A stretch of DNA of 64,000 nucleotides from Candidatus Undinarchaeota archaeon (GTDB taxonomy: Archaea; SpSt-1190; JASMDC01), in assembly GCA_964519305.1 (NCBI GenBank), contig CAZFHY010000006.1, positions 86,099 through 150,098 of the forward strand, written 5' to 3'. The notes below the pieces were generated by a model. The model worked only from the letters and a program-made list of their open reading frames with translations. It was not told the DNA's origin and searched no databases. Of the stretch, positions 56,429 through 62,621 are shown piece by piece; positions within the stretch are counted from its first letter, which is position 1; each line of letters opens with the position of its first letter. Position numbers and translations under genes: made by a program.

Positions 56429-57301
56429 TCAATTATGTCTCCGGAACTTCCATTTTCCGGAATAGTATAGTATCCCGACGAAGATAGCACCGACGAACAA
56501 ACCCGCATCAATGATGTCCTCGATGTTCAGCAGATTATCGATGAATGATTCTGTGTCATCATCATCCTCTGGTACGCAATAGAACCTGTCAATATCGCAC
56601 CGGGTGCCGAACGAGCAGAACGCATCGGACGTGCAGCACTTATGGCCCTTGAGGCAGCAGACGAAAATGCAATTGCGCGAGGCGCACCTGCTATCATCTG
56701 CACACCGCTCTCCGACATCGAGGAGGCGTAGGTGTGGTAGTACCGTTGCGGTCGCTTGTGGCGACGGGGTTGTCGGTGAGCTCCCCGGGATATCGGTCGG
56801 TACCGGGCTTGCTGTGACCGAGGGCGCAGGTGTCGGAGTGGGATCCCGTTGGTATTGAATGAGGACAAATGAGTTCCCGAAGATGGTGATGTCCTCGCAG
56901 TAATCGAGCCTCTGGGTGACCCTGAGCGTGATGGTGTTCTCACCCTTGTCCAGATTATAATCGTGCGTACTGAGGTCCCAGCGCATGTTGAAATTGGAGC
57001 GAACGGTCCACCAGTCGGAATATGTACGCTCTCCAGGGACGGGGACACCGTTGACGATGACATGGAGTCGCGGTGCATAAGTGCTCGAGGCATGGATGTT
57101 GAGGGTGGTCGACTCGGGTCTCTCGGGAGCTGTGAATGGGATGGATATCTCAGTCACGAGCTCGCGGTCCTCGGATGTGCACTTGTAGGTCTTTGTGGGT
57201 GATCCCAGGTCATCGAAGGTCATCTCTTCCTGGAACCACTCCCCCGAAACACAGGTCAGCATTACGAGGATTATGATGACTGCTACCTTGTTGGAGCGCA
57301 C
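56429..57301 (-). CDS. secreted Cys-rich protein with C-terminal membrane anchor
   Basis: 290 aa; signal peptide, Thr/Pro-rich linker, Cys-rich C-terminal region, terminal hydrophobic segment. Confidence 0.45.
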   Translation of the reverse strand: MRSNKVAVIIILVMLTCVSGEWFQEEMTFDDLGSPTKTYKCTSEDRELVTEISIPFTAPERPESTTLNIHASSTYAPRLHVIVNGVPVPGERTYSDWWTVRSNFNMRWDLSTHDYNLDKGENTITLRVTQRLDYCEDITIFGNSFVLIQYQRDPTPTPAPSVTASPVPTDIPGSSPTTPSPQATATVLPHLRLLDVGERCADDSRCASRNCIFVCCLKGHKCCTSDAFCSFGTRCDIDRFYCVPEDDDDTESFIDNLLNIEDIIDAGLFVGAIFVGILYYSGKWKFRRHN

Positions 57302-57354: not shown

Positions 57355-57867
57355 CTATACTGATTCGTCCTCATCCTCATCAAGTAGGTAGTCGGGCGTT
57401 GGCGACCATGTACCAACGATCACAGCCGTCATGAACACCAGTACTAGGAGTGCACCGAGCCCCGTGGACCCGAACGCGAGCCCCACTGCAGCGAAAGCAA
57501 GAAATGCGCCAAGGAGCATCACGCCCCGGCGGAGTCCGCTCACCTCGTCCTCCCCTCCGAAAAGGTAGCCGAATAGGTACGTGGCTGCAAGACCGACCAC
57601 TAGGAACACGGGGAACATGTACTTCTGGGCCAAGACCATTGTCGCAGCGAGCGCGGAGCTCGCCCTGCTCGCGCCCATTATGAGCGCGAGGGCCCAGAAC
57701 CCGATCAAAAGAGCCACGAATGTACGTTCACGGAAACCCCATCGACTATCGCTCTCTCGGTCGAGGGCGGCATGGAACACATAGGTGGCCGCCAGGGCTA
57801 CGAACGGGCCGGCCACCAGAAGGGCAACGAGGAGCTGAAGCTCCATACCGGCAGTGGCCATGATCAC
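57355..57867 (-). CDS. polytopic membrane protein, unknown function
   Basis: 170 aa, 5-6 hydrophobic helices, acidic C-terminus. Confidence 0.45.
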   Translation of the reverse strand: MIMATAGMELQLLVALLVAGPFVALAATYVFHAALDRESDSRWGFRERTFVALLIGFWALALIMGASRASSALAATMVLAQKYMFPVFLVVGLAATYLFGYLFGGEDEVSGLRRGVMLLGAFLAFAAVGLAFGSTGLGALLVLVFMTAVIVGTWSPTPDYLLDEDEDESV

Positions 57868-60800
57868 CGTCCTTCGCTGCTCGTCTCGTGTCCAAGCGTC
57901 TCAAGCTCGCGTTGGAGGAGCGTGAGCTCACGCTCACCAAGGGCGAACCTGCTTACTGTGACGAGAAGAGAAGCATCGCCCATGGACACCCGGTCCCTGA
58001 GGGATTGGATGGCCCGGAACACAGAGTCGAAACCGTTGTGGCCTACTAGATACTCGATCCCGTCCAGGAGCACGACCGACGATGGCAACTCATCGACGTA
58101 ACGCTTGATTGCCTGGACAGTGTCAATATGTGAGGGGCTCAGGGTCACGTTATCGATGGAACGTTCGTCCGTGAGCCAGCGCACTGCGACCTCCTCGGAC
58201 AGTTCGTAGCGACGGCGAAGGATATCGGGATTAGTACGGGAGATACAGAGGGTGGGTTTACCGAGCGTGTGGGCATGTGAAAGGAAGCGAAAGCTCGTTT
58301 CGGGTTTGCTCTCGATCACCAGATAGGAGTACCCAGAGCGAACTGGGAACTCTCCTCCAGACACTAGGATAGGTTCAGGCACCTCCAAGGGACGGGGCGT
58401 TTCGACGGGTACCTGTGCGGAGACCGTGGTGGCGGGGATGGGCGCGACCACAGCATTGGCCAATGCCCTGGTTATGTCCAGAGATCCGAGTGCCCGCCTG
58501 CTACGTCCGATGGCCGCAATTGCTGGGCCGTCAAGTACTGCGCCAAGGGCCTGGCGACGTGGTACTGGCGGGAGGGCGGATAGGGCGACCTGAGCAAGTG
58601 CTCTGTATACGTCGGTACGGCCTGCTTCAAGAGAGGCGATGAGCAGAGGCCGTGCCTCGGCGTCTAGTACCCTACGCAGACAGCGGACGCGGGCGAGGGT
58701 CGTAGTGGCCTCCATACCCACGGTCTCAAGAACATCCTCGAGAGCGTGAAGGTCCTCGGAGCCGGGTGCCCGGCGAGCCCAGGCCACACCTTTGACATGG
58801 TCCTGGAGGGCCAAGATACGTCGTGCATCCGCTAGCACATGGTCGGTCCCCGCTGTCGCGAGGACTACCTTAATCCTCCGCACACAGTCAGGTGGGAACA
58901 GGAGGAGATCGATCAAACGGATGAGCGCACCCTCCTGCGTAAGTTCCCCATTGACATAGCGACGGATCGCATCGAGAGCCGAAGGTAGTGAAGGGAGGGG
59001 GTTATCGACAGATCCAAGCTCATTGGACATCTCTACAAGGAGGTCGTGACGCTCGTCGGCGGGAGCTTCGCAGATGACGGTAACGGACCGGAGGATCAGA
59101 CGATGTTCCTTGGAATCGCACCCTTCTGCTGCCGGACAGAACTTGCAAGGTGCAGGGGCGGACCGCCCCTCGAGCACATCCTGGCTGTGCTCCAAGTAAT
59201 CCCGGAGGTTGGATATCGACGGGCTCTCCACTTCAGTATCGATCTTATCCACGATCGCTAACGCGTCCGTCAGAGAGACAGCGCTGGTCCTGGTCAGGAT
59301 CACGATGCCCGCTGCTTCGGGCACGAGATGTGCTGAGGACGTCTCGCCTTCGACCAAGAGGCGGGCCGCAAGGTCATCAGCGAGGCCGGTTGGAGGGAGT
59401 ATCTCACGTACAACGACTCCGACGTCACCCGAGGGGGGCGGTGTGGGAAGTCCGGCTGCAGCGAGCATGCTCCAAGGGCCTCCTGAACCGGGATCAGGCG
59501 GTGGCCAGCCGGGGAGGGCCAGGGGCCCAGTGCAAGGATTTTGACTGTCGAACGCAGTAAGGACTTTTGCAGTAGATTCGTATCCGACCGTAGCTTTGAG
59601 CAGTGATGCGAATGTGGACCCAGCCAGCTCGGAAGGGGTATCCTTTTGTGGAAGGAGTGAGGACAGCCGTTCGTCCAGAAGGCGCTCGACCAAATGATCC
59701 ATTACCGATCGTTCTCGCATCTTGGAGAGGGCTCTGGCACGACTGGCGGGATCGGATAGGGCATCGAACGCACGGACGATGGCCGCCTCTGTTTGATCGG
59801 GATTGAGCGCACTGGAGAGTGCGAGGAGAGAGTCCATGCGGAGCCAAGGATCCTCGATGCTCTCGGTCAACTCCAAGAGGACATCGGTCCGATCGGCAAG
59901 TTCAGTGCTCAAGGTATCAGGTCCCACGAGTTCACCCAGTATCCCGAGTGATGTGGCCTTTTCCCAAGGATCCGAGATCTCAGTGACCGTCCGTACTAGC
60001 TCCTTTGTGTGTGGCGTGAGGTGGTCACGGACTGCTCCCATGACGTAATGGCCTGAAGCGGCCAGGTCACGGAGCACTTCCAGCCTACGAGGGATGGCTG
60101 TGATATCAGCAGCGGGTACAAGGGTTTCGAGAGCCGTACTGGCGACGGCCTCTAGGAGGTCGGGGCGTGGCGTACAATAAGCACGTGCACCCTTGACCAC
60201 ATGAGCCGTATGCTCTGGATCAGGTAGCTCTATCGCTGCTGCCAGTACTGTGCGAGCAGTATCCCTCGGACATCCTGAGGCGAGCTTGAGGAGACCACGC
60301 ACTGCCTCAGCACGGCTCCATGGATCCTCCAGTTCGGACAGTCTGTGGATAACTCTGGGGACAAGGCCCTCCATGAGCCGGCAGAACGCAGTGTCCGAAA
60401 GAGGTGCCCTAGCGAGATGGGCAAGGAGCGTTACTGCCTCGTCCGGGCTTGATTCCTTCACGAGATCAATGGCCGCCTCCATTGCAGCGGGAGGAGCACG
60501 GTCACCCAGCCCTTCGACGATGTGGAATAACGTGTGACAGCGTTCCTTCCGGGGGAGGGATGTAGCATCGATGACTATGCCATCGGCGAAACCCGTCACA
60601 AGATCCGGACCGAGCGCGTGACCTAGTGCGGCAACCCATCGTGCACGGCTGGAGACATCGGACTCGGCCATTTCCCGCATGAGCCAATCCCCCATCTCCG
60701 CGGCGATGGCGGGAGGGAATGCTGCGAGGAAGGTGGCCGCACGTCCGGGCGTGTCCTCGGCAACGGTGGACGATAGGGCTTCCTTGGCCTGACGTGAGAG

Positions 60801-61331
60801 ACGAGGTCGCGTCCTCTCATCGGCCGCTGTCATGAGGAGGGGGATGATTTCCATGTGTACGGTATCGCTCGCACGTTCCAACTCCCTGAGCACGGATGGT
60901 GCTAGCCTCTCCGCTGAGGGCGAATCGGCCAGGACCTCACCAAGGGTGCCAAGAACGATAGCGCGCTCCTTAGGGACATCGAGGCGTTCGACGGCATCAA
61001 GGATACCTCTGAGACCTCGTCCGAGCTCACGAACCGCCCCCTCTAAGGCCTTGAAAAGTGCTGGGCCTCTTCGATTCAGGATGACGGAGACAATCGCGTC
61101 TGCGTCCCTTGGCCCCAGTTCGCTGGCAGCGAGCCGTAGGAGGAGGGCGGACCGCCTGAACCCTACATTCTCAGATTGGGACGCCAGATCGAAAAGTTCC
61201 CGGTCCGTCCCCGGTGTGGCCGTCAGTTCTTCAACGGATGCCACGACTTCGTCCAAGTGCCGCCAAGGCTCTTCTCCATCGAGGATGGAGCTGAGGGAGG
61301 CAGAGCCCATGTGAGGGATGGTTGCCCTCAT
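57864..61331 (-). CDS. large alpha-helical repeat (HEAT/ARM-like) protein with C-terminal inactivated KaiC-like (DUF835-type) module
   Basis: 1155 aa; Leu/Ala-rich helical repeats; C-terminal ~150 aa (GYSYLVIESKPETSF...VVLLDGIEYLV...SLLVTV) follows RecA/KaiC strand order but lacks a Walker A P-loop. Confidence 0.5.
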   Translation of the reverse strand: MRATIPHMGSASLSSILDGEEPWRHLDEVVASVEELTATPGTDRELFDLASQSENVGFRRSALLLRLAASELGPRDADAIVSVILNRRGPALFKALEGAVRELGRGLRGILDAVERLDVPKERAIVLGTLGEVLADSPSAERLAPSVLRELERASDTVHMEIIPLLMTAADERTRPRLSRQAKEALSSTVAEDTPGRAATFLAAFPPAIAAEMGDWLMREMAESDVSSRARWVAALGHALGPDLVTGFADGIVIDATSLPRKERCHTLFHIVEGLGDRAPPAAMEAAIDLVKESSPDEAVTLLAHLARAPLSDTAFCRLMEGLVPRVIHRLSELEDPWSRAEAVRGLLKLASGCPRDTARTVLAAAIELPDPEHTAHVVKGARAYCTPRPDLLEAVASTALETLVPAADITAIPRRLEVLRDLAASGHYVMGAVRDHLTPHTKELVRTVTEISDPWEKATSLGILGELVGPDTLSTELADRTDVLLELTESIEDPWLRMDSLLALSSALNPDQTEAAIVRAFDALSDPASRARALSKMRERSVMDHLVERLLDERLSSLLPQKDTPSELAGSTFASLLKATVGYESTAKVLTAFDSQNPCTGPLALPGWPPPDPGSGGPWSMLAAAGLPTPPPSGDVGVVVREILPPTGLADDLAARLLVEGETSSAHLVPEAAGIVILTRTSAVSLTDALAIVDKIDTEVESPSISNLRDYLEHSQDVLEGRSAPAPCKFCPAAEGCDSKEHRLILRSVTVICEAPADERHDLLVEMSNELGSVDNPLPSLPSALDAIRRYVNGELTQEGALIRLIDLLLFPPDCVRRIKVVLATAGTDHVLADARRILALQDHVKGVAWARRAPGSEDLHALEDVLETVGMEATTTLARVRCLRRVLDAEARPLLIASLEAGRTDVYRALAQVALSALPPVPRRQALGAVLDGPAIAAIGRSRRALGSLDITRALANAVVAPIPATTVSAQVPVETPRPLEVPEPILVSGGEFPVRSGYSYLVIESKPETSFRFLSHAHTLGKPTLCISRTNPDILRRRYELSEEVAVRWLTDERSIDNVTLSPSHIDTVQAIKRYVDELPSSVVLLDGIEYLVGHNGFDSVFRAIQSLRDRVSMGDASLLVTVSRFALGERELTLLQRELETLGHETSSEGR

Positions 61332-61382
61332 CTATAAATCTTTGATGCCGCGGACCTCGCCCGCTGCATCCTTTTTTATGTA

Positions 61383-62159
61383 TTGCATGCTCAGTCAACG
61401 GACATGTCCGTGTTCGGCGAGGACCCAAATCTGACTCGGATGGACGCTCCTCCAGTGTCCCAAGGCAGCGACGAGAAGATTCCAACTCATGTCCCGGGCT
61501 TCGACAAGCTCATGGGAGGGGGGTTCGAGCGCAACGCAACGATATGCCTCTTCGGCGGGCCCGGAACCGGAAAGACGACTCTCGCTCTCCAGATCCTATA
61601 CAATGCGGCCTTGACCGATGGCGAACCGGGGCTCTATATATCGTTCGAACAGTCGCGGGACGAGGTCTACAGGTTCATGAAACGCATGGGGTACGACCTC
61701 GAAGCGCTCGAAAAGAAGGGCTTGTTCACTTTCAAGAACTACTACCCGACACATCTCCAGAGCTTCATCAAGGAGGACAGGGGGCCCATTGAGAAGACTA
61801 TCGAGACAATCGGCGCCACTCTTCTGGGTATCGACTCCCTCACAGCCCTCGCGATGGTATGTGAGAACGATATCGAGCGTCGGCGGACCTTCCTTAAGCT
61901 CTTCGAGACTGTCAAGATCCATAACACGACCAGCATCTTCACCGTTGAGGAGCATATTACGCCCGACAATATCAAGAGCGTCCACGGCACCGAGTTCCTG
62001 GCTGATGGAGTGGTGAACCTCTACAACCTTCGCCGGGAATGGACACGCCGCCTGGGCCTGGAGATCATCAAGATGCGGGGGATCGCCTTTCCCCGAAAGA
62101 TCGTACCCTATACGATCGAGTCCAACGGTATAAACGTGTTCCCTGATCTCAATCTATAA
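61383..62159 (+). CDS. KaiC-like/RecA-superfamily ATPase (single domain)
   Basis: 258 aa; Walker A GGPGTGKTTLALQ, KaiC-like layout. Confidence 0.7.
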   Translation: MHAQSTDMSVFGEDPNLTRMDAPPVSQGSDEKIPTHVPGFDKLMGGGFERNATICLFGGPGTGKTTLALQILYNAALTDGEPGLYISFEQSRDEVYRFMKRMGYDLEALEKKGLFTFKNYYPTHLQSFIKEDRGPIEKTIETIGATLLGIDSLTALAMVCENDIERRRTFLKLFETVKIHNTTSIFTVEEHITPDNIKSVHGTEFLADGVVNLYNLRREWTRRLGLEIIKMRGIAFPRKIVPYTIESNGINVFPDLNL

Positions 62160-62162
62160 CGA

Positions 62163-62621
62163 TCAGATGAGACTGTCGGTGTCGCGTACGAGGTCCGCCA
62201 ATAGCCGGGATAGTTCTTTCAGCTGCCCCCGGCTCACGGACACCGATCCCTTCTCGGTCGAGATGACGAGGCTGAGGGAATTGGCGTCCACGTTGATATG
62301 CTTGTCCTCGATTGCATGATAGAGCTTGGTGACGGTACGGAACGCAGCGGGGTAATCCTCTTTGAATCCGTGCTCCTTCACGAGCACTTCCTCGAAGACC
62401 TCAGACCTGTACCGGTCGATGGTCGGCACGTTGGGTATGAGCCCGCGCTTCCGTGCGATTATAAGCGCAGCGGTGATGGCGTTGTCCATACCGGTGTATA
62501 GCTGTTTGATGGTTGAGATGAGGAGGTGTGGGTCCTTTGCCCGCGTCATCGCGACATCGATGAGGAACGTAGCGGTCTTACTGGCCTTCCGTGCCTCCTT
62601 CAGATGGGAGGACGGGTCCAT
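62163..62621 (-). CDS. hypothetical protein
   Basis: 152 aa ORF, no recognised motif. Confidence 0.35.
   Translation of the reverse strand: MDPSSHLKEARKASKTATFLIDVAMTRAKDPHLLISTIKQLYTGMDNAITAALIIARKRGLIPNVPTIDRYRSEVFEEVLVKEHGFKEDYPAAFRTVTKLYHAIEDKHINVDANSLSLVISTEKGSVSVSRGQLKELSRLLADLVRDTDSLI

Follow-up and report, generated by a model that had tools for sequence, protein, structure and literature searches.

Why should an archaeal protein of more than a thousand residues end in what looks like a KaiC-type ATPase domain without a P-loop, and why should its gene stand back to back with that of a KaiC-like ATPase whose P-loop is intact? The question is raised by a locus in a 64,000-nt stretch (positions 86,099–150,098, forward strand; hereafter, the window) of contig CAZFHY010000006.1, from an assembly labelled Candidatus Undinarchaeota archaeon (GCA_964519305.1). 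An initial annotation, made from the sequence alone, had suggested that the large protein, here called the giant protein, is a pseudo-ATPase scaffold paired with the neighbouring ATPase. We identified its tail as a DUF835 domain, an inactivated KaiC-like module (iKaiC), and compared the gene pairing with that at other archaeal DUF835 loci. The reading that we prefer, and that we hold with middling confidence, is a lineage-specific KaiC/iKaiC module, in which a solenoid scaffold, probably anchored at the membrane, would dock on the KaiC-like ATPase encoded next to it.

The C-terminal DUF835 domain

The Pfam profile PF05763 (DUF835) matched residues 1007–1143 of the giant protein (numbering of the 1155-aa maximal reading frame throughout) over profile positions 2–136 of 136, with an E value of 3.6e-25 and 88.7 bits against a cut-off of 33.1. 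A 46%-identical relative matched the same profile at 81.7 bits. The motifs SYL..E, [ST]R..P, W, VVLLDG[IL]EYL, N.F and L.RE are present in the window sequence, which keeps all the nearly invariant columns of a 40-sequence alignment (Y13, R42, P45, W62, P76, L98–L105, N109, F111 and R151 in domain numbering). The GxxxxGK[ST] loop was found in 0 of the 40 DUF835 sequences aligned. In regards to the search itself, a word-indexed search with the C-terminal module alone returned only 2 proteins, and a four-sequence profile reached 228 DUF835 proteins.

We aligned DUF835 with 19 KaiC-like ATPases using hhalign, and the two were co-linear. SYLVIE paired with strand 1, a four-residue deletion stood in place of the P-loop GxxGxGKT, and CISRTNP lay opposite YISFEQS, so that the catalytic Glu is replaced (SRTNP for SFE[EQ]). 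VVLLDGIEYL lay opposite LLGIDSLTAL, the strand of Walker B, whose Asp is kept in DUF835. The hhalign probability was only 4–8%, with pairwise E values of 0.003–0.005, and a hidden Markov model (HMM) search of the DUF835 profile against all PDB chains gave nothing below E = 1. Because the HMM-to-sequence search was null and the hhalign signal weak, the KaiC argument is carried by the fold comparison. A KaiC/RecA α/β fold was confidently predicted for the domain, and its nearest structures were archaeal KaiC-like ATPases. PH0284, an archaeal KaiC-like ATPase, scored 14.9 in the fold comparison (157 of 165 residues aligned), followed by FlaH/ArlH (14.7 and 14.4, two structures), RecA (14.2), SSO2452 (13.8) and KaiC (13.3 and 12.9). 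Foldseek on the C-terminal model returned the same families at a template modelling (TM) score of ~0.6. In the predicted model SKPETSF sits between strand 1 (residues 1002–1006) and helix 1.

These results show that the tail is a KaiC/RecA-fold module without a P-loop, and ATP binding or hydrolysis through a P-loop is predicted to be lost. The RecA/KaiC-like module of the initial annotation is borne out by the agreement of the PF05763 match with the fold comparison, and SKPETSF, which had been placed at the Walker A position, was located there by both hhalign and the model. The pseudo-ATPase nature of the tail holds as well, with no P-loop and the catalytic Glu replaced, and is of a type already known as iKaiC. 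A profile check against DUF835 and KaiC, named in the initial annotation as the way to examine the module, gave a full-length match for DUF835 and a weak link to KaiC by hhalign.

DUF835 (PF05763) has been listed under the name 'iKaiC', for a KaiC-like ATPase domain that is inactivated, and as the output domain of REC-DUF835 response regulators (PMC5847659). According to that article (Galperin et al. 2018), the iKaiC concept is due to Makarova, Galperin and Koonin (2017, mBio 8:e01959-17). No experimental study of a DUF835/iKaiC protein was found in the literature searched.

The neighbouring KaiC-family ATPase

The 251-aa neighbour matched PF06745 (KaiC) with an E value of 2.8e-49 and 168 bits against a cut-off of 26.6, and its best PDB matches were KaiC CI domains (E 5e-51). 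It has FEQS where KaiC has FEES, so that the first of the two catalytic Glu residues is kept. The ratio of nonsynonymous to synonymous substitution rates (dN/dS) of its gene was 0.05, and the gene is far more constrained than the giant gene. The divergent KaiC-like ATPase with GGPGTGKT reported in the initial annotation is upheld by the PF06745 match and the intact Walker A and B motifs, from which the protein is probably an active ATPase.

The neighbour missed all the NCBIfam equivalog cut-offs (circadian KaiC, archaeal KaiC subfamilies and ArlH). A circadian KaiC was rejected at 134.7 bits vs 408 and 93.6 bits vs 546 (NF006799 / TIGR02655), and the protein has one domain. ArlH/FlaH was rejected at 40.7 bits vs 215, and the flanking genes are not arl genes. 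None of the eight genes that we examined at the locus encodes KaiB; no systematic KaiB scan of the window was made. The neighbour is a KaiC-family ATPase assigned to none of these subfamilies, and neither a clock protein nor ArlH.

Proximity of DUF835 and KaiC-like genes across archaea

Within the family of the giant protein, the gene order KaiC–giant–TM168 (TM168 is a 168-aa membrane protein) was the same in all the loci retrieved (L001–L005 and L086–L088; 46–100% identity). We extended the comparison by scanning one genome per archaeal or bacterial species with a DUF835 alignment, which gave >560 coding stretches, and used the best 80 (L006–L085). These loci come mostly from metagenome-assembled genomes (MAGs) of Thermoplasmata, Methanomassiliicoccales and Altiarchaeota and are biased to the best tblastn matches to the window C-terminus; the scan pattern left out LLDGMEYL variants, and the window's own family was not among the matches listed. 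KaiC-like open reading frames (ORFs) were called with a profile iterated from the window's KaiC, in flanks of up to 8 kb on each side.

A strong KaiC-like ORF was present in 16 of the 80 loci, and in all 16 it lay no more than 2 kb from the DUF835 gene (in 262 kb of sequence), with none at 2–8 kb (491 kb). The chance that all 16 would be near under uniform placement is ~5e-8, or ~2e-4 if ~8 independent arrangements are counted. Some pairs were divergent, some convergent and some co-directional and abutting, and in others one gene lay between the two. The identity of the partner KaiCs to the window's KaiC is just 24–36%, which indicates that the association recurs across KaiC subfamilies. These results indicate that DUF835–KaiC proximity is non-random and recurrent, yet it occurs in 20% of the sampled loci. 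The adjacency and co-occurrence on which the initial annotation was to be judged were accordingly found both in the family, with its single gene order, and in these 16 other loci.

In Candidatus Hodarchaeum mangrovi, an Asgard archaeon, a stand-alone DUF835 gene (176 aa) abuts a KaiC-like gene (246 aa, GGPGSGKT) on the same strand (L025:3134–4405). The two together resemble a two-domain KaiC that has been split and whose first half is dead.

The same survey bears on an alternative in which DUF835 works without KaiC, as a module for a small molecule or phospho-ligand, or for self-association, in a remodelled nucleotide pocket, and KaiC is at most co-regulated. The best-conserved DUF835 residues ring the old nucleotide site (VVLLDGIEYL, SR..P after strand 2 and the Trp of strand 3), repurposed degenerate RecA folds (BcsE and Elp4/5/6) are among the structural neighbours, and 80% of the sampled DUF835 genes, including those fused to an isoleucyl-tRNA synthetase (IleRS), have no KaiC nearby. 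However, every KaiC-like gene found in a DUF835 locus lay <2 kb away, in ~8 independent arrangements; the closest folds are those of archaeal KaiC-like ATPases in particular; and no ligand-binding motif was identified in DUF835. We regard this alternative as doubtful, though worth keeping in mind.

The N-terminal 985 residues

The initial annotation had described the part before the tail as uncharacterised helical repeats. A full-length AlphaFold2 model, built from a four-sequence alignment, had an overall predicted local distance difference test (pLDDT) score of 56 and was confident for residues 160–600, where the helical repeats are supported as an α-solenoid; the remainder is helical at low confidence only. 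Helix starts of the form DP[WEA]xxRAxxL recur in the solenoid at residues 336, 371, 454, 494 and 527. Foldseek matched it to importin-β/RanBP5, AP-1 β, SF3B1 and CRM1 with E values of 1e-4 to 1e-2 and TM scores of only ~0.2, at 10–15% identity, and Pfam HEAT_2 stayed below threshold (17.1 bits vs 27.7, E 0.0066). These proteins share the fold class of residues 160–600; in the model, the resemblance to eukaryotic HEAT/ARM proteins is one of fold class, not homology.

Residues 8–159 are 45% identical to P0004, with a dN/dS of 0.27–0.31. Residues 601–985 (dN/dS 0.18–0.24) hold strongly conserved islands, for example LIDLLLFPPDCV and VRCLRRVLDAEAR, which are the best conserved of the N-terminal part. 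This region also contains a cluster of four cysteines (C729, C732, C738 and C754), for which a family match was sought and none was found; it might, speculatively, be a candidate metal or redox site.

An exhaustive HMMER search of 1.84 billion representatives with a three-sequence N-terminal profile returned only two 50%-identity clusters, which are the family itself, and P0126 (E 4.8e-4). The latter is a NACHT/NPHP3-type STAND NTPase with TPRs and was rejected, being judged repeat-level noise. A scan of metagenome contigs added two further loci only, 81% identical. The N-terminal 985 residues are orphan sequence, and the description of this part as uncharacterised stands, with no relative outside the family among the representatives searched.

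The gene cluster and the proposed mechanism

The giant gene is followed on the same strand by the genes for TM168 and for surf290, a 290-aa predicted surface protein. Translation of TM168 is probably coupled to that of the giant gene because the gap between stop codon and ATG is 2 nt. From sequence and hydropathy, surf290 begins with a signal or anchor, followed by a beta-rich domain, a linker of Pro/Thr/Ser, a 12-Cys module and, at the C-terminus, a membrane anchor; matches to carbohydrate-binding-module-like and cadherin-like domains were sub-threshold only. Its dense 12-cysteine module, between the linker and the C-terminal anchor, is CADDSRCASRNCIFVCCLKGHKCCTSDAFCSFGTRCDIDRFYC. The surf290 gene possibly has its own TATA-like box, and it is the next gene in the family loci wherever the contig extends that far. 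In L005, the 46%-identical relative (a 5.1-kb contig), identities were 69% for KaiC, 62% for TM168, 64–66% for DUF835 and 41–50% for the N-terminal region, and the surf290 orthologue was 44% identical over 90 aa.

In the mechanism that we propose, the 1148-aa protein would be a non-enzymatic scaffold whose α-solenoid body offers protein-binding surfaces, and TM168, translated along with it, would probably hold it at the membrane, perhaps together with surf290. Its DUF835 tail would dock on, or insert into, an oligomer of the single-domain KaiC-like ATPase encoded by the divergent gene, and the nucleotide or phosphorylation state of the ATPase would thereby be coupled to whatever the scaffold binds. 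We infer the physical contact between DUF835 and KaiC, the membrane tethering and a signalling (not structural) role. In regards to the pseudo-ATPase scaffold paired with an ATPase that had been suggested initially, the dead tail and the conserved gene pairing were found; the docking of the scaffold is the part that we infer, and the signalling hub also put forward there is a possible role. Deletion of cirA, which encodes a KaiC-like protein, makes Haloferax volcanii hypermotile (PMC10983859), and the reference list of that article includes a report that ArlH autophosphorylation controls the binding of ArlH to ArlI. These reports point to regulatory roles for archaeal KaiC-like ATPases.

Four points weigh against this mechanism. 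The profile–profile link between DUF835 and KaiC is weak in sequence (the hhalign probability of 4–8%). KaiC-like genes are absent from the available flanks of 64 of the 80 DUF835 loci, including all 34 IleRS-DUF835 fusions, which indicates that DUF835 needs no cis-encoded KaiC. The membrane tethering is argued from gene order only. Finally, the family is narrow (two clusters at 50% identity among 1.84 billion representatives), so that its synteny is weak evidence by itself; L001, the 82%-identical relative, is syntenic over the whole 20 kb.

The same gene order could also be that of an assembly or structural machine, in which the solenoid is a cytoplasmic platform for a complex of TM168 and surf290, and DUF835 recruits the KaiC-like ATPase as a factor for assembly or remodelling. 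ArlH, which works with the archaellum motor, and GvpD, which works with gas vesicles, are models for such a role. The tight coupling of the giant gene to the TM168 gene, with the conserved surf290 gene next, would fit this explanation, as would the presence of ArlH/FlaH among the best structural matches, the typical use of large HEAT solenoids as structural adaptors, and the lipid/envelope genes CarS and GT2 near the cluster. However, the solenoid, TM168 and surf290 matched no archaellum, pilus, gas-vesicle or secretion component, the surf290 gene may have its own promoter, and the neighbourhood outside the four genes is kept in close relatives only. We consider an assembly machine unlikely.

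A bolder version of the docking mechanism, which we regard as a long shot, makes DUF835 the 'receiver' of a KaiC-based phosphorelay. The domain would be a mock subunit in or on a KaiC-like hexamer, trans-phosphorylated or conformationally driven; several 1000-aa solenoid arms would form a membrane-tethered signalosome, with input from the four-Cys cluster (as a redox or metal sensor) and from TM168 and surf290. If this were true, the same docking would explain KaiC control in trans of IleRS-DUF835 and of DnaA-ATPase-DUF835 proteins in Thermoplasmata.

TM168, surf290, a 152-aa protein encoded beyond the KaiC-like gene and the N-terminal profile were compared with all the ORFs of the 80 other DUF835 loci, and no relatives were found. 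TM168 and surf290 had no Pfam, NCBIfam or PADLOC match. A defence system was rejected: PADLOC was null for the giant protein, TM168, surf290 and the 152-aa protein, and gave generic P-loop matches only for KaiC. Rfam gave no matches on the window. The 152-aa protein (62163–62621, − strand) has no family match; its gene is convergent with the KaiC-like gene, with 3 bp between their ends, and is kept in the close relatives L001–L004 and L087, and the L005 contig stops short of its position.

The near-identical public proteins P0129, P0002 and P0137 are labelled Candidatus Undinarchaeales (a DPANN order) or Methanopyri by their submitters. The GC content of the window is ~60%, and homologues of MC1 and CarS lie in the syntenic region. 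The lineage assignment of these MAGs looks unreliable because the public labels disagree and because of this GC content and these homologues.

Gene starts, putative promoter spacer and selection

The maximal ORFs of the giant protein (57864–61331, − strand, 1155 aa) and of the divergent ATPase (61383–62159, + strand, 258 aa) have the coordinates and sizes given in the initial annotation; we corrected the starts as follows. A BRE/TATA element (transcription factor B recognition element and TATA box), CAAAGATTTATAG when read along the giant gene's strand, adjoins the first ATG of the giant gene and lies 22 nt upstream of the second, at 61310. It is invariant in the window, L001 and L005. On the other side of the spacer, a T-rich TATA-like box precedes the KaiC-like gene's ATG at 61404 by 24 nt. 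Spacing of this kind between TATA box and ATG fits leaderless transcripts in archaeal promoters, and TATA boxes ~22–24 nt from the ATGs at 61310 and 61404 imply leaderless mRNAs for both genes. The maximal-ORF starts at 61331 and 61383 are unlikely to be used because each adjoins a TATA box. The likely products are of 1148 and 251 aa, which agrees with the public gene calls. Judged by their sequence and position, the two elements would act as promoters, and the giant and KaiC-like genes may be co-regulated through the shared spacer (Table 1).

The GC content of ~59%, the numerous long spurious ORFs that overlap real genes within the window, and the absence of homologues of the N-terminal 985 residues outside the family could suggest that the giant ORF arose by chance in GC-rich DNA or is a pseudogene in decay, and that its pairing with KaiC is meaningless. 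The selection data speak against this. The whole-gene dN/dS of the giant gene was 0.20 against L001 and 0.29 against L005. By segment, the values against L001 were 0.27 (residues 1–160), 0.22 (160–600), 0.18 (600–980) and 0.15 (C-terminal domain), and those against L005 were 0.19–0.36, with dS saturated at ~1.7; the range over all the segments and both orthologues was 0.15–0.36. Moreover, the C-terminus carries a full-length Pfam domain, the promoter is conserved, the solenoid model is confident for residues 160–600, and intact giant orthologues occur on >20 contigs. The spurious-ORF or pseudogene reading, whose probability we put close to nil, is ruled out by this evidence of selection and conservation. 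Both the giant gene and its divergent KaiC-family neighbour are genuine genes that evolve under purifying selection.

Table 1. Coordinates of the features of the locus (window positions) and of two other DUF835 architectures (positions within the loci named).
Feature	Coordinates	Strand	Description
surf290, 290-aa predicted surface protein	56429..57301	−	53 bp downstream of the TM168 gene, same strand
TM168, 168-aa membrane protein	57355..57861	−	4–5 hydrophobic helices and acidic tail (hydropathy); ATG 2 nt past the giant stop
Giant-protein gene	57864..61310	−	1148 aa most likely; public calls also 1148 aa; maximal ORF to 61331
DUF835, predicted inactivated KaiC-like (RecA-fold) domain	57900..58334	−	residues ~1000–1144
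SKPETSF	58290..58310	−	residues 1008–1014; loop and start of a helix where the Walker A P-loop has been lost
Second helical region	58377..59531	−	residues 601–985; poorly modelled, pLDDT mostly <50; Pro-rich linker at end
Cysteine cluster	59070..59147	−	C729-x2-C732-x5-C738-x15-C754; invariant in 4/4 family sequences, including the 46%-identical one
α-Solenoid (HEAT/ARM-like), predicted	59532..60854	−	residues 160–600; ~23 helices in hairpins, AlphaFold2 pLDDT 70–90
N-terminal ~150 aa	60855..61310	−	residues 8–159; predicted helical at low confidence (AlphaFold2 pLDDT 30–45), family-specific
Divergent spacer, putative promoters	61311..61403		93 bp; two back-to-back TATA elements, 61332–61344 (giant) and 61372–61379 (kaiC-like)
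Single-domain KaiC-family ATPase	61404..62159	+	251 aa; Walker A GGPGTGKT, FEQS, Walker B LLGIDSL
IleRS-DUF835 loci	L014:3978-8450, L029:4446-8444, L034:4290-8453, L045:4179-8444, L084:3183-8468		~29 more in L006–L085
DnaA-DUF835 loci	L012:2514-4664, L020:6087-8459, L049:6480-8450, L074:6288-8450, L085:6291-8450		

Other DUF835 architectures

In 34 of the 80 loci, a genuine isoleucyl-tRNA synthetase (TIGR00392, 961 bits vs 621) carries a C-terminal DUF835 domain, joined to it by HhH and zinc-ribbon segments. These proteins are of 1320–1761 aa and were found in many Thermoplasmata and Methanomassiliicoccales MAGs. No mention of the fusion was found in the literature searched, and a housekeeping aminoacyl-tRNA synthetase with a dead-KaiC tail may exceed the window protein in interest.

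In other archaeal proteins, a DnaA ATPase domain of bacterial type (PF00308, E 1e-50 to 1e-61) stands before the C-terminal DUF835. The gene for each of them is followed by one for a ~500-aa protein without a family match and then by a KaiC-like gene, whose Walker A motif is GPPGSMKT, with Met for the last Gly of GxxxxGK[ST]. A Cdc48-like double AAA+ ATPase is joined to DUF835 in an Altiarchaeota MAG (L043:5061-8474), and a DUF11/CARDB surface-type domain in L023 (4645-6351), where a KaiC-like gene lies 52 bp downstream.

The DUF835 domain is followed by a median of 4 residues in the 92 domain matches, which come from the loci retrieved and from the window, and typical DUF835 proteins among those retrieved are of 160–400 aa. 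The window protein is special by the identity of its N-terminal part, not by its size.

Comparison with known systems and significance

The closest known relatives in design are the REC-DUF835 and REC-PAS-PAS-DUF835 response regulators (PMC5847659), with which the window protein has in common the C-terminal domain, all its motifs and its place at the very end of the chain, after an N-terminal part that varies. Like the iKaiC proteins, it has a KaiC-like fold without a P-loop, and its gene is linked to that of a KaiC-family ATPase. Unlike the REC-DUF835 proteins, it carries a ~985-aa orphan region, predicted as an α-solenoid, in place of REC, PAS, TPR or any other known input domain, and its gene is coupled to genes for a small membrane protein and a surface protein.

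Compared with PH0284, PH0186, SSO2452 and ArlH/FlaH, the tail has lost Walker A and the catalytic Glu and is ~80 residues shorter, and the window cluster has no arl genes. Cyanobacterial circadian KaiC is a tandem CI-CII double ring of ~519 residues, and the window neighbour belongs to the same superfamily with a single domain of 251 aa. The circadian protein, with an active ring and a second homologous ring, embodies an analogous idea, although nothing in the window suggests a clock. XRCC2, Psy3-Csm2 (Rad51 paralogues), Elp4/5/6 and the BcsE N-terminal domain are degenerate RecA-fold partners or scaffolds, and the likeness is by analogy only, with no specific sequence relationship and with other partners and another biology.

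KaiC-like ATPases occur in large numbers in archaea, and it has been proposed that they are the counterpart there of two-component signalling. The survey of DUF835 genes is useful for testing the hub hypothesis, since it combines a non-random proximity to KaiC with many DUF835 domains on housekeeping enzymes such as IleRS. The window locus is a further example of the archaeal KaiC/iKaiC signalling design already proposed; its architecture is new, and the principle is not. It offers a compact test case, with one probably active single-domain KaiC, one iKaiC-tagged putative scaffold, a shared 93-bp spacer and candidate membrane partners.

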